Counted from the first letter of the stretch, positions 553 through 57,221 are shown. The stretch: DNA of 64,000 bases from Eledone cirrhosa (GCA_964016885.1 OZ024755.1:29326001-29390000), one strand, 5' to 3'. Notes: a model not told the origin generated them from the letters alone. Numbers and translations are program-made.

Positions 553-3500
553 TGTCAACCATTAAGGTATTACTCCATTTGTAACGCCAGTTTGTACAAT
601 TGTCAAACATTAAGGTATTACTCCATTTATAACGCCAGTTTGTACAATTGTCAACCATTAAGGTATTACACCATTTGTAACGCCAGTTTGCACAATTGTC
701 AACCATTAAGGTATTACACCATTTGTAACGCCAGTTTGTACAATTGTCAACCATTAAGGTACTACACCATTTGTAACGCCAGTTTGCACAATTGTCAACC
801 ATTAAGGTATTACAGCATTTGTAACGCCAGTTTGTACAATTGTCAACCATTAAGGTATTACTCCATTTGTAACGCCAGTTTGTACAATTGTGAACCATTA
901 AGGTACTACACCATTTGTAACGCCAGTTTGTACAATTGTCAACCATTAAGGTATTACACCATTTGTAACGCCAGTTTGTACAATTGTCAACCATTAAGGT
1001 ATTACTCCATTTGTAACGCCAGTTTGTACAATTGTCAACCATTAAGGTATTACACCATTTGTAACCCCAGTTTGTACAATTGTCAACCATTAAGGTATTA
1101 CACCATTTGTAACGCCAGTTTGTACAATTGTCAACCATTAAGGTATTACACCATTTGTAACGCCAGATTGTACAATTGTCAACCATTAAGGTATTACACC
1201 ATTTGTAACGCCAGTTTGTACAATTGTCAACCATTAAGGTATTACACCATTTGTAACGCCAGTTTGTACAATTGTCAACCATTAAGGTACTACACCATTT
1301 GTAACGCCAATTTGTACAATTGTCAACCATTAAGGTACTACACCATTTGTAACGCCAGTTTGTACAATTGTCAACCATTAAGGTATTACACCATTTGTAA
1401 CGCCAGTTTGTACAATTGTCAACCATTAAGGTATTACACCATTTGTAACGCCAGTTTGTACAATTGTCAACCATTAAGGTACTACACCATTTGTAACGCC
1501 AGTTTGTACAATTGTCAACCATTAAGGTATTACACCATTTGTAACGCCAGTTTGTACAATTGTCAACCATTAAGGTATTACACCATTTGTAACGCCAGTT
1601 TGTACAATTGTCAACCATTAAGGTATTACACCATTTGTAACGCCAGTTTGTACAATTGTCAACCATTAAGGTATTACACCATTTGTAACGCCAGTTTGTA
1701 CAATTGTCAACCATTAAGGTATTACACCATTTGTAATGCCAGTTTGTACAATTGTCAACCATTAAGGTATTACACCATTTGTAACGCCAGTTTGTACAAT
1801 TGTCAACCATTAAGGTATTACACCATTTGTAATGCCAGTTTGTACAATTGTCAACCATTAAGGTATTACACCATTTGTAACGCCAGTTTGTACAATTGTC
1901 AACCATTAAGGTACTACACCATTTGTAACGCCAGTTTGTACAATTGTCAACCATTAAGGTATTACACCATTTGTAACGCCAGTTTGTACAATTGTCAACC
2001 ATTAAGGTATTACACCATTTGTAACGCCAGTTTGTACAATTGTGAACCATTAAGGTATTACACCATTTGTAACGCCAGTTTGTACAATTGTCAACCATTA
2101 AGGTATTACACCATTTGTAACGCCAGTTTGTACAATTGTCAACCATTAAGGTATTACACCATTTGTAATGCCAGTTTGTACAATTGTCAACCATTAAGGT
2201 ATTACACCATTTGTAACGCCAGTTTGTACAATTGTCAACCATTAAGGTATTACACCATTTGTAACGCCAGTTTGTACAATTGTCAACCATTAAGGTACTA
2301 CACCATTTGTAACGCCAGTTTGTACAATTGTCAACCATTAAGGTATTACACCATTTGTAACGCCAGTTTGTACAATTGTCAACCATTAAGGTATTACACC
2401 ATTTGTAACGCCAGTTTGTACAATTGTCAACCATTAAGGTACTACACCATTTGTAACGCCAGTTTGTACAATTGTCAACCATTAAGGTACTACACCATTT
2501 GTAATGCCAGTTTGTACAATTGTCAACCATTAAGGTATTACTCCATTTGTAACGCCAGTTTGTACAATTGTCAACCATTAAGGTACTACACCATTTGTAA
2601 TGCCAGTTTGTACAATTGTCAACCATTAAGGTATTACTCCATTTGTAACGCCAGTTTGTACAATTGTAAACCATTAAGGTATTACACCATTTGTAACGCC
2701 AGTTTGTACAATTGTCAACCATTAAGGTATTACACCATTTGTAACGCCAGTTTGTACAATTGTCAACCATTAAGGTATTACTCCATTTGTAACGCCAGTT
2801 TGTATAATTGTCAACCATTAAGGTATTACACCATTTGTAACGCCAGTTTGTACAATTGTCAACCATTAAGGTATTACACCATTTGTAACGCCAGTTTGTA
2901 CAATTGTCAACCATTAAGGTATTACACCATTTGTAACGCCAGTTTGTACAATTGTCAACCATTAAGGTATTACACCATTAGTAACGCCAGTTTGTACAAT
3001 TGTCAACCATTAAGGTATTACACCATTTGTAACGCCAGTTTGTACAATTGTCAACCATTAAGGTATTACACCATTTGCAACGCCAGTTTGTACAATTGTC
3101 AACCATTAAGGTATTACTCCATTTGTAACGCCAGTTTGTACAATTGTCAACCATTAAGTTATTACACCATTTGTAACGCCAGTTTGTACAATTGTCAACC
3201 ATTAAGGTATTACTCCATTTGTAACGCCAGTTTGTACAATTGTGAAACATTAAGGTATTACACCATTTGTAACGCCAGTTTGTACAATTGTCACCCATTA
3301 AGGTATTACACCATTAGTAACGCCAGTTTGTACAATTGTCAACCATTAAGGTATTACACCATTTGTAACGCCAGTTTGTACAATTGTCAACCATTAAGGT
3401 ATTACACCATTTGCAACGCCAGTTTGTACAATTGTCAACCATTAAGGTATTACTCCATTTGTAACGCCAGTTTGTACAATTGTCAACCATTAAGGTATTA

Positions 3501-5686
3501 CACCATTTGTAACGCCAGTTTGTACAATTGTCAACCATTAAGGTATTACACCATTTGTAACGCCAGTTTGTACAATTGTCAACCATTAAGGTATTACTCC
3601 ATTTGTAACGCCAGTTTGTACAATTGTCAACCATTCAGGTATTACTCCATTTGTAACGCCAGTTTGTACAATTGTCAACCATTAAGGTATTACTCCATTT
3701 GTAACGCCAGTTTGTACAATTGTCAACCATTCAGGTATTACTCCATTTGTAACGCCAGTTTGTACAATTGTCAACCATTAAGGTATTACACCATTTGTAA
3801 CGCCAGTTTGTACAATTGTCAACCATTAAGGTATTACTCCATTTGTAACGCCAGTTTGTACAATTGTCAACCATTCAGGTATTACTCCATTTGTAACGCC
3901 AGTTTGTACAATTGTCAACCATTCAGGTATTACTCCATTTGTAACGCCAGTTTGTACAATTGTCAACCATTAAGGTATTACTCCATTTGTAACGCCAGTT
4001 TGTACAATTGTCAACCATTAAGGTATTACTCCATTTGTAACGCCAGTTTGTACAATCGTCAACCATTCAGGTATTACTCCATTTGTAACGCCAGTTTGTA
4101 CAATTGTCAACCATTAAGGTATTACTCCATTTGTAACGCCAGTTTGTACAATTGTCAACCATTCAGGTATTACTCCATTTGTAACGCCAGTTTGTACAAT
4201 TGTCAACCATTAAGGTATTACACCATTTGTAACGCCAGTTTGTACAATTGTCAACCATTAAGGTATTACACCATTTGTAACGCCAGTTTGTACAATTGTC
4301 AACCATTAAGGTATTACACCATTTGCAACGCCAGTTTGTACAATTGTCAACCATTAAGGTATTACTCCATTTGTAACGCCAGTTTGTACAATTGTCAACC
4401 ATTCAGGTATTACTCCATTTGTAACGCCAGTTTGTACAATTGTCAACCATTAAGGTATTACACCATTTGTAACGCCAGTTTGTACAATTGTCAACCATTA
4501 AGGTATTACACCATTTGTAACGCCAGTTTGTACAATTGTCAACCATTAAGGTATTACTCCATTTGTAACGCCAGTTTGTACAATTGTCAACCATTCAGGT
4601 ATTACTCCATTTGTAACGCCAGTTTGTACAATTGTCAACCATTAAGGTATTACACCATTTGTAACGCCAGTTTGTACAATTGTCAACCATTAAGTTATTA
4701 CACCATTTGTAACGCCAGTTTGTACAATTGTCAACCATTAAGGTATTACACCATTAGTAACGCCAGTTTGTACAATCGTCAACCATTAAGGTATTACTCC
4801 ATTTGTAACGCCAGTTTGTACAATTGTGAAACATTAAGGTATTACACCATTTGTAACGCCAGATTGTACAATTGTCAACCATTAAGGTATTACACCATTT
4901 GTAACGCCAGATTGTACAATTGTCAACCATTAAGGTATTACACCATTTGTAACGCCAGTTTGTACAATTGTCAACCATTAAGGTATTACAGCATTTGTAA
5001 CGCCAGTTTGTACAATTGTCAACCATTAAGGTATTACAACATTTGTAACGCCAGTTTGTACAATTGTCAACCATTAAGGTATTACTCCATTTGTAACGCC
5101 AGTTTGTACAATTGTCAACCATTAAGGTATTACTCCATTTGTAACGCCAGTTTGTACAATTGTCAACCATTAAGGTATTACACCATTTGTAACGCCAGTT
5201 TGTACAATTGTCAACCATTAAGGTACTACACCATTTGTAACGCCAGTTTGTACAATTGTCAACCATTAAGGTATTACTCCATTTGTAACGCCAGTTTGTA
5301 CAATTGTCAACCATTAAGGTACTACACCATTTGTAACGCCAGTTTGTACAATTGTCAACCATTAAGGTACTACACCATTTGTAACGCCAGTTTGTACAAT
5401 TGTCAACCATTAAGGTACTACACCATTTGTAACGCCAGTTTGTACAATTGTCAACCATTAAGGTACTACACCATTTGTAACGCCAGTTTGTACAATTGTC
5501 AACCATTAAGGTACTACACCATTTGTAACGCCAGTTTGTACAATTGTCAACCATTAAGGTACTACACCATTTGTAACGCCAGTTTGTACAATTGTCAACC
5601 ATTAAGGTATTACAGCATTTGTAACGCCAGTTTGTACAATTGTCAACCATTAAGGTACTACACCATTTGTAACGCCAGTTTGTACA
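553..5686. repeat. 48-bp tandem minisatellite, ~107 copies
   Basis: Unit tgtcaaccattaaggtattacaccatttgtaacgccagtttgtacaat repeated head-to-tail with point variants only and no visible indels. It explains the long repetitive ORFs on both strands. Confidence 0.97.
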
Positions 5687-5826
5687 ACAGAAAATAACGT
5701 CGATCTGTTGCGATGTATATTAACTATTTTCATTTTATACTGAAGTATTATTCACACATACCCAAACCAACATAACCCTACTTGATAAGCCTTGTCTTTA
5801 CTTGCTTCACGTACTCTATTTCTACT

Positions 5827-5934
<108 letters not shown>

Positions 5935-6079
5935 TTCTCTCACTCTCCTCTTAATGTTTCTCACTTGCTCTTGCTGCTACTACCCCTGAGGGAGACAGTT
6001 GATTTAGATTTTTGTGATGGTAACTGTTGAGATTGATCACACTTCCTTTCGCTCTGTATTTCAGTGTCGAGAAATTAAT

Positions 6080-6264
6080 TGTTTCTACTTTAGGCACAAG
6101 GCCAGCAATTACCCAGTGCATTACTGGTACTTTATTTTATCTACCCCGTAAGGATGAAAGGCAAAGTCAACCTCGGCGGGATTTGAACTCAGATCGTAAA
6201 GGGACGTAACTATGCTGGAAAGCATGGCGTCCGACCCTCTACCGATACTGCCAATCCACCACCA
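6080..6264 (-). mobile_element. tRNA-derived SINE (family A, Meta-domain-like core), full length with TSD
   Basis: Minus strand has A-box TGGCAGTATCGG, B-box GAGTTCAAATCC and core GCCTTTCATCCTTACGGGGT. A 20-bp direct repeat ttcagtgtcgagaaattaat flanks it at 6060-6079 and 6265-6284. Confidence 0.9.
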
Positions 6265-6509
6265 TTCAGTGTCGAGAAATTAATGATTGCCTACATCTGG
6301 GGTTTTGTGCTTTACATGTACATGCACAATATGTTGTCCATTGAATACTTGTTGTAATTTACCAGGTATGTAACACTATAGCTGTTAACATCTCACATGC
6401 ATCGCACCAGCAGAGAGGCCATACTGTTGGGCAAACTGGCATTACGTGTGCACTACCACCTTAATGCATGGACGCTGCAGAGGTAACAACGATTCACTTG
6501 CTGCATGTG

Positions 6510-6897
<388 letters not shown>

Positions 6898-6899
6898 CA

Positions 6900-6956
<57 letters not shown>

Positions 6957-7832
6957 GTATGTATGTATGTATATATGTATGCCTCTATTGTAACGAGTCG
7001 GGTGGGGGACGGACGGTTGAGCACTTGTCGTTTCAACAGCTAGCTCCAGACTGGAACTAGGCGTTGAAACAGCAAGAGCGAAGCCGTCGGGCCCGGCCCT
7101 TTTACAATAGAGCCATACTCTACTATCCCAAGTATCGAGTACTCAGTTGAGTAATGGTCTAACTAAATTTAATCATTGCATTTATACAGGTGAATGTAAG
7201 TTATGTAAAATGTGACAGAAACCCCTCAAATATGGAACGATGTCACAATTACGCATTTGGGCGTTTTATCTCATTATCAGAAGCTAACTGTAGCCCTCTC
7301 AATTCAATATACAACCTTAGTTTACTCTGGATATATTTCTAAAAGTCCTCGCTTTGAAAACTAATGAATATACTTCATCTGTTGAATGCTCTCAAAATAT
7401 ATTTTAAAAGGTTCTGGAATTGAAAATTAATGAATATTCTTAAACCAATGAATACTCTGAAAATCCTACCAACCCACACACGTGCAGATATTCCTGCGTG
7501 TCCACATGCACGGGTTTACATACAATTACGATACCAATATAATGCAGATATCTTACGAAGCATATAACGAAAATTAGATGCGACATTTCGTCTAATGGCA
7601 TTCGTGTTTTGGCCGTATAACGAAGGAAAAATTAAATTAACGTATTTATTTTATAATTGAAAGTAATCATGTATTTGCGTGCTTTTTATTCATGGTATAC
7701 TATAATTAATTATCGTTTAATTATAGATACACACAAACAAGCATACATATATACATACACACATACACACATATATATATATATACATATACACGCACAC
7801 ACACATATATATATACGCGTATATACATATTT

Positions 7833-10243: not shown

Positions 10244-10271
<28 letters not shown>

Positions 10272-10275
<4 letters not shown>

Positions 10276-10733
10276 ATTAAATAAATGGAAACTATATTTA
10301 TAAAACCATATTTATTTCGTTATATATATTTCAGGGATATCATATTAACAATATGTTATGCCTTCTTCAGATAAAATACAATATAAACAGTCTTATAAAT
10401 AAATAGATACGACATACCTTTCAATCACCTTGCATTTGGGTGGTTGATTTGGCAGTTTTCAATCACCTTGCATTTCCCAAATGCAAGGTGATTGAAAGGT
10501 ATGTCGTATCTATTTATTTATAAGACTGTTTATATTGTATTTTATCTGAAGAAGGCATAACATATTGTTAATATGATATCCCTGAAAAATATATATAACG
10601 AAATAAATATGGTTTTATAAATATAGTTTCCATTTATTTAATATCATAAATATACTCCAAATACTTGTTGAGTGCTTTTATATCAGTTATAAATATTTAC
10701 TCGTTGTTAACCCAACAATTTAAATATAACTTT

Positions 10734-10891: not shown

Positions 10892-10958
10892 TTTTATTAT
10901 GCGCATTTCAAAAACAAACATCATCAAACAATAATATTTGTGTTTTCATCAGATAAAA
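10892..10958 (-). ncRNA. Type I hammerhead ribozyme
   Basis: Minus strand TTTTAT-CTGATGA-[AAAC..GTTTTT stem II]-GAA-ATGCGCAT-A-ATAAAA: perfect 6-bp stem I, palindromic stem III, AUA cleavage triplet. Lies within a (TA)n-flanked insert. Confidence 0.75.
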
Positions 10959-18683: not shown

Positions 18684-20368
18684 TTATGTTTGTTTTGAAC
18701 TTTTGTCTTCGCTGCGACCAAGTCGCAGCATTGACATAGATCGCTTATTGTTGTCACTTCTGCCTAGTCTTAACATAGAGACTGCACGTTTGTCCTCCTC
18801 TACATTGTCGCTTCCACTTCGTCCAAGTCGCAACATGGATACAGCTCTCTTTGAATTCATGTCTTCGCCTCCGCTTCGTCCTAGTCTTAACATAGAAACA
18901 GCCCTCTTCATATCGTCGGCGCCGTTTCGACCAAGTCTTAACATTGACACAGCACGTTTTGCTTCATCCATGTCGGAGCCACTACGTCCCAGCCGTAACA
19001 TAGATACAGCTCTCTTTCCTTCAACTGATCCTGCTCGTCCCAATCTTAACATGGAAACTGCTCTTTTTTCAGATGAATATCCTTGGTCTTTCCCATAGCC
19101 CAACATAGAAACAGCAGGGTTCACCGCATCTAATTCGCTCCGTCCAAGACGTAACATAGATACAGCTCTTTTGTCATCACCAGGCATGCTGCGCCCAAGC
19201 CGCAACATAGAAACTGCTCTTTTCTCATCCCCAGACATACTGCGTCCAAGGCGCAGCATAGACACTGCTCTCTTTTCATCAATAGGCATACTGCGTCCAA
19301 GCCTTAACATAGAAACGGCTCTTTTTTCATCAACAGGCATACTGCGTCCAAGCCTTAACATAGAAACGGCTCTTTTTTCATCAACAGGCATACTGCGTCC
19401 AAGCCTTAACATAGAAACTGCTCTCTTTTCATCAATAGGCATACTGCGTCCAAGCCTCAACATAGAAACTGCTCTTTTATCATTACCAGACATGCTACGA
19501 CCAAGGCGTAGCATAGAGACTGCTCTTTTATCTTCAGCAGGCATGTTGCGCCCAAGGCGTAACATAGATACAGCACGCTTATTTTCTTCGAAGTTGTTTT
19601 GTAATTCACTTCTACCTAACCGTAGCATTGAAAGAGCTCTTTTATCATTATATGCGCCACTACGGCCTAGCCTTAGCATGGAAACTGCACGCTTTGTGTC
19701 ATCGAATACCGGAATAACATTATCTTCAGTTTCTGCTGCTGCACCTTCACCGGAGTTTTCATCCTCTACTTGCCGTTTTCCTAATCGCAACATTCTAACT
19801 TGCCTCTTTTCGTTGTTTCCTATAATTTTATACTGCATGCATACACCATTTACGTTATGGATTTCACATTCGGGTTGTACTTCATTTGTTGAGACTGGCA
19901 AATATTCATCGGCTATTTCACCTTCAGAAAATCCATCTTGCCTTCTTTGTGGAACAGCTATTTGGTGCGGGAAAAGGATGCTATCAGTACTGTCACCAAT
20001 TTCGTTTTCTTCATTTTCTCGTAGATCTTCGTAATCTGGAAACGATCTCTTCTTTAGACGTCCTAACCTAGGCACAGGTGCTAATCGAAATTCGTAATCA
20101 TTTGACCCTGTAGGCATAGATCGTCTCAGAAGCTGGACTACACGTGATAAAGCATCACCGTTGTACTGATCACCTGTGAGTTCATTCATAGATCTCAATG
20201 CAGACGACGGTTTGTGTCCTTGTTGTTCTAGAATAGCTGCAACTATTGTTTTTAAATCTGCTGGATTGTATCCCCCACTACTGCGTTTATCAATATTTGG
20301 CTGAGCTTCATCATTTACGTTCAATTTGTTTTTCTTCTCGGCTGCATTTTTGTCGTCGCTGCAGTTAC
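18684..20368 (-). CDS. myomodulin: Myomodulin neuropeptide precursor, terminal coding exon (signal-peptide exon upstream, not located)
   Basis: 16x [11 protein letters not shown] plus [16 protein letters not shown] and [10 protein letters not shown]; molluscan myomodulins end in -MLRLamide. Acceptor ttttgttttatatttcAG|gt aac tgc at 20369/20368 (phase 1); stop TAA at 18684-18686. Confidence 0.95.
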
Positions 20369-20964
20369 CTGAAATATAAAACAAAAGCATTGTTAAACTT
20401 TGAATATGTATACACTCATCGGTGATATAACCATATATGTTCAGAAAACATGATGTTATATATGTGCATTGCCGTATATATGTAGTCATAAGGTTACTTG
20501 TTCAATAACCCATATGTTTTGACATATTTCGTTACATGAACCAGTGAGCGGGAAGGACCAATCGCCGTCGAAACCTCAGGCGTATTTGAACCCCGTACTG
20601 TCGAGTTCCCCCACAAGATCGGAGTGTTGGCGGCCCGTCTGAGGAGGGAGCCCCGCTAGGTTGGGTGACTGTTGCAGCGGGTGTCACTGGGCATCGTCCG
20701 GGGGAATGCTTTTGCCGTCTTGTCCGCGGGGCGCAGCACTTCTGTCCTCTTGCCATAGGCCCAAATCTCAATCACCCTTCCCCTTCACCCATCCCCTCTC
20801 TTCTGCGGCAACAGATCTCTTGCCATCCCTTCCCCCTCCCGTTCTTTTCCTTCTTTCTTACTTTCTCTCTTTTTTCTCTATATTTCCCTAATCTTTCTTT
20901 CGTTTTACTTCCCTTTTTTTATTATTGCTGCCATTGTAGTTGTCATTACAATTATTATTATTAA

Positions 20965-33329: not shown

Positions 33330-34785
33330 AGAATGAATAATAACAGGTAGACATCATAAAAAGGTAATTTATTCTGTGTGCTTACAAATGTTCCCACGGT
33401 GGTTATACAGCCTAGTTATGCTATGTGCAAATTTATAACTATTTGCAAAACTCAATTATCAAATGCTGTGACCACTGTATCATCAGAGCAGAATGGTTAA
33501 AATGTACAATGTAAATACCCTTAAGTGAGGTTATTGGTGAAGATAGAGTAGAAAAGGAAGAGAGAAAAGAAGGGGAGAGGAAGAGAGAGAGAAAGATATG
33601 AAGGGGTTGGAGAAATAGGAGAGAGTGGTTTGTAGATATCTTAATCAAAATGTTATGGTAGGGGTTTAATTATACTGGTTACACTTAAAGCGACCACCTT
33701 AAGCGATGCGTTGATAGTCAAGGTTGGAATTATTTATTGCCCCAGAGGGCAGGTTCATAGATGTGGAGAGGGAGGAAGGTAGGCCTAGGGCGAGAGAAAG
33801 AGAGTGGAATCGATATAGAGGGAGAGATAGAGAGGGGACAGATGAAAACTATGGGGTGGGTGAACTTTGGGTTCGTAGTAGTAATCTGCGAATTGCACTA
33901 AGTTACCATTTATAGTGATAAGCAGGGTATTGTCTTGTAGTGTTGGGGAAGAGAAGGTGGTTAGCTAGAAAGCAATGTTATAGTTACGGGTTCGAATGTT
34001 AAGTTATAGTGAGAGAATTTAGCTTTTAGCTTGTGGTTGCAGTATAATGATCGTTCGATTCTATCGTTAAGTAGTTTATTTTTGGATTTTAAGATGTAAA
34101 AGAGTTCAAGGTTATATAACCTACAGTACTTCAATCCACTCCGATATGCACTTGCGCTGGAAAGTATATCCCATTTTAAGGTGAACTGTTGGTTGCGTTC
34201 ACGGAGTTGCCAGGTCTTGTTGGCGAGCGTGGTCACAAAACGGTGATCAGGATGTTTAATTGAGAATCGATGACCGTACCAGCGAGATTTAAACGAGGTG
34301 GTGGTAGACCCGATGTAATACCATTTCTGGTCGTTCGATTCAACTGTGCATTGGTAAACAATGTTGGACTTTAGGCATTTATTCTTTAATGGACATCTTT
34401 CAGGTAGATGGCAGTTACAGTTTTTGTTGTGGGTAGCGGGTATACCATGGATAGGTTGTGATAGCAGTATAGGTGGGTGGTGTAATACCCGTCTCCCATT
34501 TAGTGGTTAGTAGGCAGATATTACGTTCTGCCCATCTGTTATCAAAATATTATGTTTTGTAGTGTTGTTTAATTGCTTTAAGTTAAGTTCTTTTATGTAT
34601 GCTTCAAGGTTTGGTCCCGTGGAGTATGGAAGGATCAGGAACTTTGGTGCCCGGAATACAGAAGGATCAGGATACAAGTTTCTTCAACAATTCTTCCATA
34701 ACTCGTTGAGTAACCTCTCACCGTACGTCAACCCTATCCAGTGTAGTAATTAACCATTACTGCATCTAGGATAATCCTATACCTA

Positions 34786-43490: not shown

Positions 43491-43899
43491 AAAGTTCTAT
43501 TTAAAGTTGTTGGGACACAACAAGTAAATATTTTTATAACTGATATAAAGCACTCGACAAGTTTTTGGAGTAGATATACGATATTAATAAATGGAAACTA
43601 TATTTATAAAACCATATTTATTTCATTATACATATTTCAGGGATACCACATTAAATTATGGTATGCCTTCATCAGACAAAATACAATATATAACAGTTTT
43701 ACAAATAGCTTTGACGTACCCAGACAGCCTCCAAAACTAATGGTTGTATTTTAAAAGGGTACGTCAAAGCTATTTGTAAAACTGTTATATATTGTATTTT
43801 GTCTGATGAAGGCATACCATAATTTAAAGTGGTGTCCCTGAAATATGTATAATGAAATAAATATGGTTTTATAAATATAGTTTCCATTTATTAATATCG

Positions 43900-43935
<36 letters not shown>

Positions 43936-44181: not shown

Positions 44182-44219
<38 letters not shown>

Positions 44220-44226
<7 letters not shown>

Positions 44227-44665
44227 CAAATAACGAAACGAAATTAAATTTCGTTTCGTTTGTAACTCACTTTTGTATGACTGACGCTTAAACAATTAAG
44301 TTAAAGATGTACATCCATATATGTATACTGAAATACTAGTATGTATATGAATACACACACGTATACATATGTAGGTGTACCAAGTTTTTTCACTGGTCAC
44401 TTTACTGTGAGTGGCCAGCTATTCTGTATGTAAACACACAGACAAACCGGTTTTTAGAGTCATACTGGTTTTTGAGGAAACACCTCTCCTCTATTCTCCA
44501 GAAAGCCAGACAAGGAATATTGAACTAGTTTCGTTGTTGTTACAACTCATCAGCAATATTTACCTATCTTCCGGCCTCTCTAGAGAATCGTAAAAGCACA
44601 TATCGTTATATGCTTTTTCTATGAAAATTAGTAGTGGGCAGACTAATTTGCATAGAGTGTGAGTA
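44220..44665 (-). mobile_element. Inverted, near-full copy of the 467-bp retrozyme-like unit, with minus-strand HHR at 44516-44560
   Basis: Reverse complement of the array unit; abuts (TA)n on the left and joins the forward array through a TA microhomology at ~44664-44665. Confidence 0.9.
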
Positions 44666-47600
44666 GAGAGGCCGGAAGATAGGTAAATATTGCTGATGAG
44701 TTGTAACAACAACGAAACTAGTTCAATATTCCTTGTCTGGCTTTCTGGAGAATAGAGGAGAGGTGTTTCCTCAAAAACCAGTATGACTCTAAAAACCGGT
44801 TTGTCTGTGTGTTTACATACAGAATAGCTGGCCACTCACAGTAAAGTGACCAGTGAAAAAACTTGGTACACCTACATATGTATACGTGTGTGTATTCATA
44901 TACATACTAGTATTTCAGTATACATATATGGATGTACATCTTTAACTTAATTGTTTAAGCGTCAGTCATACAAAAGTGAGTTACAAACGAAACGAAATTT
45001 AATTTCGTTTCGTTATTTGTTTTTATCGTCTCCGTTGAACCGGTACTTACTCACACTCTATGCAAATTAGTCTGCCCACTACTAATTTTCATAGAAAAAG
45101 CATATAACGATATGTGCTTTTACGATTCTCTAGAGAGGCCGGAAGATAGGTAAATATTGCTGATGAGTTGTAACAACAACGAAACTAGTTCAATATTCCT
45201 TGTCTGGCTTTCTGGAGAATAGAGGAGAGGTGTTTCCTCAAAAACCAGTATGACTCTAAAAACCGGTTTGTCTGTGTGTTTACATACAGAATAGCTGGCC
45301 ACTCACAGTAAAGTGACCAGTGAAAAAACTTGGTACACCTACATATGTATACGTGTGTGTATTCATATACATACTAGTATTTCAGTATACATATATGGAT
45401 GTACATCTTTAACTTAATTGTTTAAGCGTCAGTCATACAAAAGTGAGTTACAAACGAAACGAAATTTAATTTCGTTTCGTTATTTGTTTTTATCGTCTCC
45501 GTTGAACCGGTACTTACTCACACTCTATGCAAATTAGTCTGCCCACTACTAATTTTCATAGAAAAAGCATATAACGATATGTGCTTTTACGATTCTCTAG
45601 AGAGGCCGGAAGATAGGTAAATATTGCTGATGAGTTGTAACAACAACGAAACTAGTTCAATATTCCTTGTCTGGCTTTCTGGAGAATAGAGGAGAGGTGT
45701 TTCCTCAAAAACCAGTATGACTCTAAAAACCGGTTTGTCTGTGTGTTTACATACAGAATAGCTGGCCACTCACAGTAAAGTGACCAGTGAAAAAACTTGG
45801 TACACCTACATATGTATACGTGTGTGTATTCATATACATACTAGTATTTCAGTATACATATATGGATGTACATCTTTAACTTAATTGTTTAAGCGTCAGT
45901 CATACAAAAGTGAGTTACAAACGAAACGAAATTTAATTTCGTTTCGTTATTTGTTTTTATCGTCTCCGTTGAACCGGTACTTACTCACACTCTATGCAAA
46001 TTAGTCTGCCCACTACTAATTTTCATAGAAAAAGCATATAACGATATGTGCTTTTACGATTCTCTAGAGAGGCCGGAAGATAGGTAAATATTGCTGATGA
46101 GTTGTAACAACAACGAAACTAGTTCAATATTCCTTGTCTGGCTTTCTGGAGAATAGAGGAGAGGTGTTTCCTCAAAAACCAGTATGACTCTAAAAACCGG
46201 TTTGTCTGTGTGTTTACATACAGAATAGCTGGCCACTCACAGTAAAGTGACCAGTGAAAAAACTTGGTACACCTACATATGTATACGTGTGTGTATTCAT
46301 ATACATACTAGTATTTCAGTATACATATATGGATGTACATCTTTAACTTAATTGTTTAAGCGTCAGTCATACAAAAGTGAGTTACAAACGAAACGAAATT
46401 TAATTTCGTTTCGTTATTTGTTTTTATCGTCTCCGTTGAACCGGTACTTACTCACACTCTATGCAAATTAGTCTGCCCACTACTAATTTTCATAGAAAAA
46501 GCATATAACGATATGTGCTTTTACGATTCTCTAGAGAGGCCGGAAGATAGGTAAATATTGCTGATGAGTTGTAACAACAACGAAACTAGTTCAATATTCC
46601 TTGTCTGGCTTTCTGGAGAATAGAGGAGAGGTGTTTCCTCAAAAACCAGTATGACTCTAAAAACCGGTTTGTCTGTGTGTTTACATACAGAATAGCTGGC
46701 CACTCACAGTAAAGTGACCAGTGAAAAAACTTGGTACACCTACATATGTATACGTGTGTGTATTCATATACATACTAGTATTTCAGTATACATATATGGA
46801 TGTACATCTTTAACTTAATTGTTTAAGCGTCAGTCATACAAAAGTGAGTTACAAACGAAACGAAATTTAATTTCGTTTCGTTATTTGTTTTTATCGTCTC
46901 CGTTGAACCGGTACTTACTCACACTCTATGCAAATTAGTCTGCCCACTACTAATTTTCATAGAAAAAGCATATAACGATATGTGCTTTTACGATTCTCTA
47001 GAGAGGCCGGAAGATAGGTAAATATTGCTGATGAGTTGTAACAACAACGAAACTAGTTCAATATTCCTTGTCTGGCTTTCTGGAGAATAGAGGAGAGGTG
47101 TTTCCTCAAAAACCAGTATGACTCTAAAAACCGGTTTGTCTGTGTGTTTACATACAGAATAGCTGGCCACTCACAGTAAAGTGACCAGTGAAAAAACTTG
47201 GTACACCTACATATGTATACGTGTGTGTATTCATATACATACTAGTATTTCAGTATACATATATGGATGTACATCTTTAACTTAATTGTTTAAGCGTCAG
47301 TCATACAAAAGTGAGTTACAAACGAAACGAAATTTAATTTCGTTTCGTTATTTGTTTTTATCGTCTCCGTTGAACCGGTACTTACTCACACTCTATGCAA
47401 ATTAGTCTGCCCACTACTAATTTTCATAGAAAAAGCATATAACGATATGTGCTTTTACGATTCTCTAGAGAGGCCGGAAGATAGGTAAATATTGCTGATG
47501 AGTTGTAACAACAACGAAACTAGTTCAATATTCCTTGTCTGGCTTTCTGGAGAATAGAGGAGAGGTGTTTCCTCAAAAACCAGTATGACTCTAAAAACCG

Positions 47601-50600
47601 GTTTGTCTGTGTGTTTACATACAGAATAGCTGGCCACTCACAGTAAAGTGACCAGTGAAAAAACTTGGTACACCTACATATGTATACGTGTGTGTATTCA
47701 TATACATACTAGTATTTCAGTATACATATATGGATGTACATCTTTAACTTAATTGTTTAAGCGTCAGTCATACAAAAGTGAGTTACAAACGAAACGAAAT
47801 TTAATTTCGTTTCGTTATTTGTTTTTATCGTCTCCGTTGAACCGGTACTTACTCACACTCTATGCAAATTAGTCTGCCCACTACTAATTTTCATAGAAAA
47901 AGCATATAACGATATGTGCTTTTACGATTCTCTAGAGAGGCCGGAAGATAGGTAAATATTGCTGATGAGTTGTAACAACAACGAAACTAGTTCAATATTC
48001 CTTGTCTGGCTTTCTGGAGAATAGAGGAGAGGTGTTTCCTCAAAAACCAGTATGACTCTAAAAACCGGTTTGTCTGTGTGTTTACATACAGAATAGCTGG
48101 CCACTCACAGTAAAGTGACCAGTGAAAAAACTTGGTACACCTACATATGTATACGTGTGTGTATTCATATACATACTAGTATTTCAGTATACATATATGG
48201 ATGTACATCTTTAACTTAATTGTTTAAGCGTCAGTCATACAAAAGTGAGTTACAAACGAAACGAAATTTAATTTCGTTTCGTTATTTGTTTTTATCGTCT
48301 CCGTTGAACCGGTACTTACTCACACTCTATGCAAATTAGTCTGCCCACTACTAATTTTCATAGAAAAAGCATATAACGATATGTGCTTTTACGATTCTCT
48401 AGAGAGGCCGGAAGATAGGTAAATATTGCTGATGAGTTGTAACAACAACGAAACTAGTTCAATATTCCTTGTCTGGCTTTCTGGAGAATAGAGGAGAGGT
48501 GTTTCCTCAAAAACCAGTATGACTCTAAAAACCGGTTTGTCTGTGTGTTTACATACAGAATAGCTGGCCACTCACAGTAAAGTGACCAGTGAAAAAACTT
48601 GGTACACCTACATATGTATACGTGTGTGTATTCATATACATACTAGTATTTCAGTATACATATATGGATGTACATCTTTAACTTAATTGTTTAAGCGTCA
48701 GTCATACAAAAGTGAGTTACAAACGAAACGAAATTTAATTTCGTTTCGTTATTTGTTTTTATCGTCTCCGTTGAACCGGTACTTACTCACACTCTATGCA
48801 AATTAGTCTGCCCACTACTAATTTTCATAGAAAAAGCATATAACGATATGTGCTTTTACGATTCTCTAGAGAGGCCGGAAGATAGGTAAATATTGCTGAT
48901 GAGTTGTAACAACAACGAAACTAGTTCAATATTCCTTGTCTGGCTTTCTGGAGAATAGAGGAGAGGTGTTTCCTCAAAAACCAGTATGACTCTAAAAACC
49001 GGTTTGTCTGTGTGTTTACATACAGAATAGCTGGCCACTCACAGTAAAGTGACCAGTGAAAAAACTTGGTACACCTACATATGTATACGTGTGTGTATTC
49101 ATATACATACTAGTATTTCAGTATACATATATGGATGTACATCTTTAACTTAATTGTTTAAGCGTCAGTCATACAAAAGTGAGTTACAAACGAAACGAAA
49201 TTTAATTTCGTTTCGTTATTTGTTTTTATCGTCTCCGTTGAACCGGTACTTACTCACACTCTATGCAAATTAGTCTGCCCACTACTAATTTTCATAGAAA
49301 AAGCATATAACGATATGTGCTTTTACGATTCTCTAGAGAGGCCGGAAGATAGGTAAATATTGCTGATGAGTTGTAACAACAACGAAACTAGTTCAATATT
49401 CCTTGTCTGGCTTTCTGGAGAATAGAGGAGAGGTGTTTCCTCAAAAACCAGTATGACTCTAAAAACCGGTTTGTCTGTGTGTTTACATACAGAATAGCTG
49501 GCCACTCACAGTAAAGTGACCAGTGAAAAAACTTGGTACACCTACATATGTATACGTGTGTGTATTCATATACATACTAGTATTTCAGTATACATATATG
49601 GATGTACATCTTTAACTTAATTGTTTAAGCGTCAGTCATACAAAAGTGAGTTACAAACGAAACGAAATTTAATTTCGTTTCGTTATTTGTTTTTATCGTC
49701 TCCGTTGAACCGGTACTTACTCACACTCTATGCAAATTAGTCTGCCCACTACTAATTTTCATAGAAAAAGCATATAACGATATGTGCTTTTACGATTCTC
49801 TAGAGAGGCCGGAAGATAGGTAAATATTGCTGATGAGTTGTAACAACAACGAAACTAGTTCAATATTCCTTGTCTGGCTTTCTGGAGAATAGAGGAGAGG
49901 TGTTTCCTCAAAAACCAGTATGACTCTAAAAACCGGTTTGTCTGTGTGTTTACATACAGAATAGCTGGCCACTCACAGTAAAGTGACCAGTGAAAAAACT
50001 TGGTACACCTACATATGTATACGTGTGTGTATTCATATACATACTAGTATTTCAGTATACATATATGGATGTACATCTTTAACTTAATTGTTTAAGCGTC
50101 AGTCATACAAAAGTGAGTTACAAACGAAACGAAATTTAATTTCGTTTCGTTATTTGTTTTTATCGTCTCCGTTGAACCGGTACTTACTCACACTCTATGC
50201 AAATTAGTCTGCCCACTACTAATTTTCATAGAAAAAGCATATAACGATATGTGCTTTTACGATTCTCTAGAGAGGCCGGAAGATAGGTAAATATTGCTGA
50301 TGAGTTGTAACAACAACGAAACTAGTTCAATATTCCTTGTCTGGCTTTCTGGAGAATAGAGGAGAGGTGTTTCCTCAAAAACCAGTATGACTCTAAAAAC
50401 CGGTTTGTCTGTGTGTTTACATACAGAATAGCTGGCCACTCACAGTAAAGTGACCAGTGAAAAAACTTGGTACACCTACATATGTATACGTGTGTGTATT
50501 CATATACATACTAGTATTTCAGTATACATATATGGATGTACATCTTTAACTTAATTGTTTAAGCGTCAGTCATACAAAAGTGAGTTACAAACGAAACGAA

Positions 50601-51017
50601 ATTTAATTTCGTTTCGTTATTTGTTTTTATCGTCTCCGTTGAACCGGTACTTACTCACACTCTATGCAAATTAGTCTGCCCACTACTAATTTTCATAGAA
50701 AAAGCATATAACGATATGTGCTTTTACGATTCTCTAGAGAGGCCGGAAGATAGGTAAATATTGCTGATGAGTTGTAACAACAACGAAACTAGTTCAATAT
50801 TCCTTGACTGGCTTTCTGGAGAATAGAGGAGAGGTGTTTCCTCAAAAACCAGTATGACTCTAAAAACCGGTTTGTCTGTGTGTTTACATACAGAATAGCT
50901 GGCCACTCACAGTAAAGTGACCAGTGAAAAAACTTGGTACACCTACATATGTATACGTGTGTGTATTCATATACATACTAGTATTTCAGTATACATATAT
51001 GGATGTACATCTTTAAC

Positions 51018-51023
<6 letters not shown>
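44664..51023 (+). mobile_element. Tandem array of ~13.6 x 467-bp HHR-containing units (non-LTR retrozyme-like)
   Basis: Exact 467-bp period (the spurious 60-aa ORF recurs every 467 bp); 14 HHR copies starting at 44686+467n (n=0..13); ends in (TA)n at 51024. Confidence 0.9.
44686..44730 (+). ncRNA. Minimal type I hammerhead ribozyme (first of 14 copies)
   Basis: AATATTG-CTGATGA-GTTGT aaca ACAAC-GAA-ACTAGT-T-CAATATT: 7-bp stem I, 5-bp stem II, palindromic ACTAGT stem III, GUU triplet with predicted cleavage after 44723. Confidence 0.9.
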
Positions 51024-51073
<50 letters not shown>

Positions 51074-51490: not shown

Positions 51491-52057
51491 TTTCTGAATT
51501 TGTTTAGCAAGATTCTTTATCTGAAATCGTGTGTTGAAACCGATATTGTTATACTTTGGGAGGGTCATGTTGCCAATAAGAAACACACGCACCAGTTGCT
51601 TTCACTTCAATTTAATTTAATATATATTTATAAATTTACAAATTTATAAATTTCTGGTTGGTTGGTTGGTTCCACAACCAGATAGTTGTTTATATATATA
51701 TAGTCATAGTTCTTTCGTCACACACTCTGTGACCTCTTCAGTGACTGGGGATTTCTTTCTTCGTTTCTGTGCCTTTCCTTTCTTCTATCCTACGCCAGAA
51801 AATGGCGTAGGATAGAAGAAAGGAAAGGCACAGAAACGAAGAAAGAAATCCCCAGTCACTGAAGAGGTCACAGAGTGTGTGACGAAAGAACTATGACTAT
51901 ATATATATAAACAACTATCTGGTTGTGGAACCAACCAACCAACCAGAAATTTATAAATTTGTAAATTTATAAATATATATTAAATTAAATTGAAGTGAAA
52001 GCAACTGGTGCGTGTGTTTCTTATTGGCAACATGACCCTCCCAAAGTATAACAATAT
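51488..52057. mobile_element. Perfect palindromic mini-element (arms 51543-51797 and 51803-52057) with an HHR on each strand
   Basis: 255-bp arms with loop gaaaa. HHR + 51854-51898: AGTCA-CTGAAGA-g-GTCACA gagtg TGTGAC-GAA-AG aa CT-A-TGACT; mirror copy at - 51702-51746. (TA)n on both sides. Confidence 0.88.
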
Positions 52058-56698: not shown

Positions 56699-57221
56699 GA
56701 TATTAAACAAATGGAAACTATATTTATAAAACCATATTTATTTCATTATATATATTTTAGGGATATCATATTAAAAATATGGTATGCCTTCTTCAGACAA
56801 AATACAATATAAACAGTCTTATAAATAGATAGATTTGACATACCTTACAACTTCAACTTCCATTTAAAAAGTTGATTTTTAAATGGAAGTTGAAGTTGTA
56901 AATCAACTTTTAAATGGAAATCAACTTTTTAATGGAAATCAACTTTTAAATGTAAATCAACTTTTTAAATGGAAGTTGAAGTTGTAAGGTATGTCAAATC
57001 TATCTATTTATAAGACTGTTTATATTGTATTTTGTCTGAAGAAGGCATACCATATTTTTAATATGATATCCCTGAAATATATATATAATGAAATAAATAT
57101 GGTTTTATAAATATAGTTTCCATTTATTTAATATCGTAAATATACTCCAAATACTTGTTGAGTGCTTTTATATCAGTTATAAATATTTACTCGTTGTAAC
57201 CCAACAATTTAAATAAAACTT

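Follow-up and report, generated by a model that had tools for sequence, protein, structure and literature searches.

The locus examined here raises the question of how a 467-bp unit without coding capacity came to be written more than 13 times in succession, and once in the opposite direction, into a (TA)n tract of the Eledone cirrhosa genome. The DNA analysed (the window) was a stretch of 64,000 nt, to which all window coordinates refer; positions in the unit were counted from the predicted ribozyme cut site, with window position 45191 as unit 1. The array is a recent insertion from a repeat family that carries hammerheads, encodes no protein and has two fixed ends; the family is new, within a known class, the metazoan non-LTR retrozymes.

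Structure of the array

As the first-pass annotation had described, a period of 467 bp was found, with 13.62 copies at 44664–51023 (plus strand), and the sole internal mismatch of this plus-strand array was a T>A at 50807. The unit had a GC content of ~35%, no LTR and a longest stop-free frame of 62 codons, in keeping with its description as non-coding. A single inverted unit of 446 nt (44220–44665), 100% complementary, was fused to the array head-to-head with a 2-nt overlap at the junction (44664–44665); elsewhere in the family the junction was mostly −2 to +5 nt. Flanking (TA)n was present on both sides (44183–44222 and 51023–51068), the last bases of the left tract being common to the end of the inverted unit, and in pure TA the length of the target duplication was not measurable.

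The inverted unit had been regarded as an added head; it is rather a second primed arm, of a kind present at most loci. This L-site (“long”) arm ran on the minus strand from unit 325 round to 303 (0.96 unit), with its RNA-sense 3′ end facing outward at 44220. The plus-strand S-site (“short”) arm ran from unit 408 round to 229, with its 3′ end facing outward at 51023, and was the third longest among 146 arms. The array had also been said to start and stop at arbitrary points of the unit, which was true of the two inner ends but not of the outer ones, since the L-type end at 44220 and the S-type end at 51023 (unit 303 and 229) lay at family-wide sites.

A single monomer between two successive cut sites (unit 1–467) occupied 45191–45657 (plus strand) and corresponded to a predicted 467-nt circle. 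The predicted fold of the circular monomer had −146.5 kcal/mol, compared with −93.2 ± 5.6 kcal/mol for 60 dinucleotide shuffles (~9 SD below). A “tail” between the two start sites (unit 230–303; 45420–45493, plus strand) contained an AC-rich perfect hairpin. The most conserved 40 nt of the unit (219–258; 45409–45448, plus strand) spanned the S start site and, judged by sequence, is a likely protein-recognition element.

Two further features of the window were observed in passing. A 605-codon frame (18684–20501, minus strand) contained many near-identical amidated-peptide repeats; it had no Pfam match, gave generic neuropeptide look-alikes by protein comparison, and resembles a molluscan myomodulin-type precursor. 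At 553–5687 stood a 48-bp tandem array of 107 copies with 97% matches, probably a minisatellite, whose plus strand had a stop-free frame of 1,714 codons.

Genome-wide distribution of the family

Exact-pattern searches of the 3.0-Gb genome gave 8,137 matches for a conserved 30-mer, 7,690 for the hammerhead core, 6,937 for the tail hairpin and 2,132 for L-end/(TA)n junctions, and reversed-pattern controls gave 0 matches. S ends numbered 718 on the forward strand; the reverse-strand count (1,378) was inflated by a variable gap and left unused. The unit was confirmed to form a dispersed family of ~8,000 units, for which at least 2,132 insertion ends were counted.

Eighty-seven loci, a small share of these insertion ends, were examined: the window, the 31 best matches, 28 hairpin clusters (every one listed in the initial 54.5 Mb of C1), seven loci found by the core pattern only and 20 picked by the end pattern. 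Apparent local duplicates (L048/L056 and L179/L180) were kept in the counts. An older subfamily of 87–90% identity with ~469-bp units (L164, L169–L176, L179–L181 and L187) had the same two ends. At L100, a LINE with a 1,040-codon frame (2448–7210) lay between both arms of a retrozyme insertion.

Insertion ends, arm pairing and target sites

Outer ends fell at two sites in the unit, S at ~229–234 and L at ~301–303, about 70 nt apart. At the 87 loci, 138 of 146 arm ends were at these standard sites, whereas 5%, the share of the unit covered by both windows, would be expected by chance; the end windows were defined after inspecting the first 32 loci and held in later sets. Leaving aside the 20 end-picked loci, the figure for the other 67, chosen without regard to ends, was 108/113.

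The two kinds of end occurred together. Outward-facing pairs within 16 kb on C1 (0–123.5 Mb), drawn from the L junctions (first 100) and S junctions (first 70) listed there, comprised 42 S+L, one LL and one SS among 44, an S+L excess with p = 1.6 × 10−11 against independent choice, and the right end of the single LL pair (L164) turned out to own a separate S arm. When arm pairs were aligned (n = 44), 36 were S+L, none was LL or SS, and eight had one disturbed end, four of which still reached a standard site past a small deletion or an inserted repeat. Several loci appeared one-armed, with a second arm of merely 11–16 nt. Each insertion has arms that face outward, with one S end and one L end.

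TA-rich flanks abutted 121 of the 138 standard ends, and the window insertion itself lay in (TA)n, in agreement with the proposed TA targeting. Target duplications at informative two-armed sites (non-pure TA) were 12 bp in six cases, 13 bp in two and 16 bp in one; two periodic targets gave an ambiguous 32 bp. Because insertions nearly always begin at two fixed points, copying by a borrowed Penelope-type enzyme from both sides of a cut is likely, and Penelope-like element (PLE)-type priming at two sites would, on this anatomy, very probably be the way in which the family inserts.

The hammerhead motif and conservation of the unit

A complete type I hammerhead was present in every unit, giving 14 plus-strand motifs and one minus-strand motif, 15 in all. 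The first plus-strand motif lay at 44675–44746, with a predicted cut after GUU at 44723, and was repeated every 467 bp; that of the inverted arm was at 44500–44571 (minus strand), with a predicted cut after 44523. Stem I could be extended past an internal loop, as claimed. The hammerhead had been called minimal, a term that suited stem III (1–2 pairs around a palindrome) but not stem II (5 pairs) or the extended stem I. A full-length match to Rfam Hammerhead_HH9 was obtained (37.7 bits, 32.9 for the last copy; E = 9 × 10−7), although it was under the 52-bit gathering score; Rfam microRNA matches, which scored below their cut-offs, were rejected as artefacts of the palindrome. Because stem III is too short for closing alone, neighbouring hammerheads are predicted to cut in pairs, and in a predicted two-strand fold the palindromic stem III paired between copies. 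GUU is a slower cleavage triplet.

Thirty-one variants were recurrent (in at least five of 67 loci), and none of them fell in the catalytic core or in the tail, part of this variant set having been picked by the tail pattern. One compensatory pair of stem II, changed on both sides, was found at 10 loci. A catalytic core free of recurrent variants, together with this compensatory change, indicated that the ribozyme matters for spread. Predicted pairs were broken by 7 of the 31 recurrent variants against 11.5 expected (p = 0.04), and by 47 of 109 singletons, as expected for neutral change; this test of structure selection was weak (minus-strand control p = 0.10, recurrent versus singleton p = 0.06). 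In 27 loci chosen without the use of unit 219–258, this segment had a divergence of 0.58%, compared with 3.5–10% in the other seven segments.

Arm length

The median length of the 146 arms was 1.6 units, and only three reached 13 units or more. A short insertion of the same family, made by the same two-site priming, might therefore have acquired its 13.6-unit arm later, by unequal exchange, or the arm might have been inflated in an assembly for which identical units are hard. Such growth did occur in the family: at L103 (30.7 units) variants stood in irregularly repeated blocks, which shows later expansion in place, and L046 (27.5 units) contained a block of shared variants. For the window array this history is unlikely. 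One variant in 6.8 kb of units, which marks it as the very young copy it had been taken for, leaves little time for repeated exchange, and other young loci had arms of 9.6, 10.7, 10.8 and 12.9 units with 0–2 private changes, so that the tail of arm lengths is continuous.

The template of the arms

The two arms of a locus were far more alike than were different loci. Arm-to-arm divergence was 0.17% within a locus and 2.7% between loci (36 loci), the corresponding values in 16 C1 loci being 0.34% and 3.8%; 140 of 155 arm-fixed variants were also fixed in the opposite arm, and 14 of the 15 misses came from one locus. Variants fixed in every unit were found at 11 of the 32 youngest loci and mostly differed between loci. 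Such locus-specific variants, fixed in all units, implied that each insertion coincided with, or came after, a bottleneck of one monomer.

Inner ends were near-uniform over the unit (KS p = 0.09), with no region avoided; 1 of 88 lay within 3 nt of the cut site, and an apparent enrichment just past it (7/88 within 27 nt) was rejected (p = 0.25). Across 343 cut-site crossings, three indel columns were found nearby. Cut linear monomers were thus not the template, since inner ends ignored the cut site and the crossings were nearly free of indels. The shared private variants of the arms and the cut-site-blind inner breakpoints favour the circular monomer, the template already inferred in the first-pass annotation, and on these patterns such a circle was probably what was copied. 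The strand that leads inward from the target was, in either arm, antisense to the hammerhead strand, as would be expected if both arms are first-strand cDNA.

The template could instead have been an uncut linear multimer transcript of another array, the hammerhead being a slow or conditional passenger. A weak stem III and a GUU site fit such a passenger, uniform inner ends fit a multimer as well as a circle, and an uncut multimer from an already uniform array might have been copied, although a circle is the simplest account. Some arrays were heterogeneous, as multimers might be. Variants recurred in every second (or fourth) unit at L036, L037, L044 and L052, at L044 in both arms and in register, and could be a record of dimer circles as templates; L046 and L053 switched subfamily or haplotype part-way, which suggests template switching or later exchange. 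The mixed arrays at L046 and L053, like the expansion at L103, speak against a purely single-run origin of the arrays. Uncut RNA was the dominant substrate of a lizard PLE (PMC11167929). Against this, many young loci have variants of their own, fixed throughout the units of both arms, which require the one-monomer bottleneck, the state of the catalytic core and of stem II speaks for a ribozyme that matters, and the modelled monomer folds as a closed, strongly paired circle. A multimer template was accordingly considered rather improbable, and the circular monomer was retained.

Penelope-like elements of the same genome

The window itself contained a 3′ piece of an RT + GIY-YIG PLE (33961–34506, minus strand; L062), and a first look at the genome gave 58,899 candidates of this kind. 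Two PLE families, both large, were reached from this GIY-YIG fragment and from a second PLE protein. One served as an internal control: it encoded RT with a GIY-YIG domain at the C terminus in 786 codons, had ends at 690 and 825–833 of its period (~140 nt apart, whereas published PLE tails are 30–40 nt) and (TA)n targets, and showed one end of each kind at all 10 loci with both ends in view. The second coding family likewise had two ends. The involvement of PLE machinery put forward in the first-pass annotation was thereby strengthened, as the retrozyme insertion anatomy (two fixed ends, inverted arm, TA target) matches that of coding PLEs in the same genome.

A helper PLE sharing sequence with the retrozyme unit was looked for in a sample of a few of the tens of thousands of PLE candidates. 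Family 1 scored 70, within the range of shuffles (55 ± 8, maximum 80), the 3′ regions of family 2 gave no similarity, and 14 further PLE 3′ regions also scored within shuffles. Twenty loci with an L end and no detected S end or hairpin, taken as helper candidates, were all retrozyme copies. At L122 (1068–2706), a retrozyme arm was joined to a PLE end, with similar TA tracts on either side; a mixed insertion was rejected here in favour of two adjacent insertions plus a deletion, which fit the strand order (−,+,−,+). An apparent link at L142 was plain adjacency in a TA tract.

Several other hammerhead-like features were noted. Type I motifs of at least three other families occurred in the window at 10952 (minus), 25584, 38358, 43675 (minus), 43803 (plus) and 57036, several of them inside short inverted pairs in TA tracts (10270–10648, 43574–43904 and 56709–57125), and 51543–52057 was another short inverted pair; these are likely PLE stubs. 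At L092, the terminal repeat of the control PLE, between two tandem frames, had by eye a hammerhead-like core with halves ~90 nt apart, which the fold did not recover.

In a genome so rich in PLE stubs, the array might be debris, i.e. a PLE-end stump or an ordinary satellite multiplied in place, which is very improbable given that none of the 87 loci passes from the unit into a PLE reading frame, that flanking DNA is not part of the unit, that the dispersed insertions, thousands in number, show ends and duplications of their own, and that subfamilies down to ~88% identity retain the same two ends.

A model of insertion

We consider it reasonably likely that, at this locus, a cut in a TA tract let a PLE RT prime on each strand and copy an RNA circle of 467 nt from two set start points. 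Arrays would be transcribed into multimers, in which cutting by paired hammerheads is predicted, and the monomer would be circularised by a host ligase; because a circle of one monomer has a single hammerhead, it would resist re-cutting. A PLE protein probably then binds the conserved 219–303 element, and its endonuclease would make a cut in (TA)n staggered by ~12 nt, the target and the duplication being observed and the enzyme proposed. One DNA end would start at unit ~303 and the other at ~229–234; these end positions are observed, and priming there is the suggested cause. The number of units that a cDNA copies on its way round the circle would vary (here 0.96 and 13.6), and the two cDNAs would be joined at arbitrary points, with the observed overlap of 0–5 nt, to give an outward-facing inverted pair.

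A bolder version, to which we give slightly less than an even chance, is that both halves of a PLE RT dimer copy one circle, each with its obligate own site and own DNA strand, with strand displacement through up to at least 13 turns, while a hammerhead active only as a dimer keeps the circle intact.

In L1 twin priming, both target strands prime on one RNA and an inversion joined by microhomology results; the position of the second priming varies, and there is no overlap between the two pieces. The retrozyme differs in that neither site varies and the whole unit is repeated in each piece.

Relation to known elements

The following comparisons draw on parts of the published texts. In animal retrozymes (coral, mussel and axolotl), circles, dimer cleavage and a proposed PLE helper have been published (PMC7229834). 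Among frog retrozymes, one of nine dimers was cleaved in vitro, a link to PLE ends was drawn by homology, and array growth by unequal crossover was suggested (10.64898/2026.07.22.740005). According to a review, metazoan retrozyme repeats have no conserved motif pointing to a helper element (PMC7761336).

The present family agrees with the metazoan non-LTR retrozymes of these reports (PMC7229834; 10.64898/2026.07.22.740005) in its tandem non-coding unit of a few hundred bp, with GC below 50% (~35%) and neither LTR nor reading frame, in the complete type I hammerhead core of every unit, conserved across loci, in its strongly self-paired predicted circle, and in its dispersed loci, target duplications of >4 bp and PLEs in the same genome; a weak palindromic stem III is also known from axolotl family 1 (PMC7229834). 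It differs in length, 467 nt being slightly over the 150–450 bp first described, and in its two fixed ends (one per arm), outward inverted arms and (TA)n targeting, which are not described in the parts of those reports compared. In the frog families, a PLE with a homologous end was given for 24 of 57, whereas none was found here among the PLEs sampled. A plant-type LTR retrozyme, whose two LTRs contain type III hammerheads and whose duplication is 4 bp, was ruled out by the type I motif, the tandem units and the ~12-bp duplication, and an autonomous PLE by the absence of an RT and GIY-YIG reading frame.

The ends of the family are those of a PLE-type insertion: two fixed 3′ ends with the tail on one arm, an inverted 5′-truncated arm and an AT-rich target. 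In PLEs, the tail is bounded by two sites at which the RT starts, and each of the two strands is cut and extended (PMC11167929); tail and inverted arm are also published (PMC8557442; PMC3846280). With endonuclease-bearing PLEs (PMC8557442; PMC3846280; PMC11167929) the family shares the inverted 5′-truncated second arm, the tail on one end only, the two start sites, a tail with an AC-rich stem-loop, targets of AT-rich or (TA)n sequence, a type I hammerhead and target duplications of similar length (~12 bp here, 8–10 bp in rotifer). Unlike them, it lacks a reading frame and both of its arms can span many units; its tail is ~70 nt instead of the published 30–40 nt. The pairing of one end of each kind is strict and quantified here, whereas in vitro both strands of the lizard PLE used the same start sites (PMC11167929). 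Non-autonomous Chlamys PLEs, e.g. MRC1 (PMC8557442), likewise form multicopy head-to-tail insertions via PLE machinery, but resemble an autonomous partner at the 3′ end and belong to a clade without canonical hammerheads.

A literature search, with most subscription journals outside its range, found no publication that dealt with a retrozyme of cephalopods or with the ends of retrozyme insertions. The main text of PMC7229834, as far as it was covered, does not mention octopus, cephalopod or inverted, and in the portions of the literature consulted no retrozyme was tied to PLE two-site priming by insertion anatomy.

Significance

For the re-entry of animal retrozymes into the genome, published links to PLEs are a shared type of ribozyme, co-occurrence and homology of ends; in the present family the PLE signature is borne by the insertion ends themselves. 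The strict pairing of one S end with one L end also has a bearing on how PLEs themselves insert, since their tail has been described only as optional on one end. The class is known, and the ends make its mobilisation step directly testable: the predictions are two start sites, one per strand, a ~12-nt stagger and an 85-nt recognition element, and a lizard PLE in vitro system exists. If both halves of an RT dimer do copy one circle, an animal genome would have recorded twin-primed rolling-circle reverse transcription in thousands of insertions, and the conserved element of 85 nt would be a portable signal for this mode of copying. A natural pair of template and protein, writing tandem DNA of several kilobases from a small circle, would be relevant to RNA-templated genome writing.
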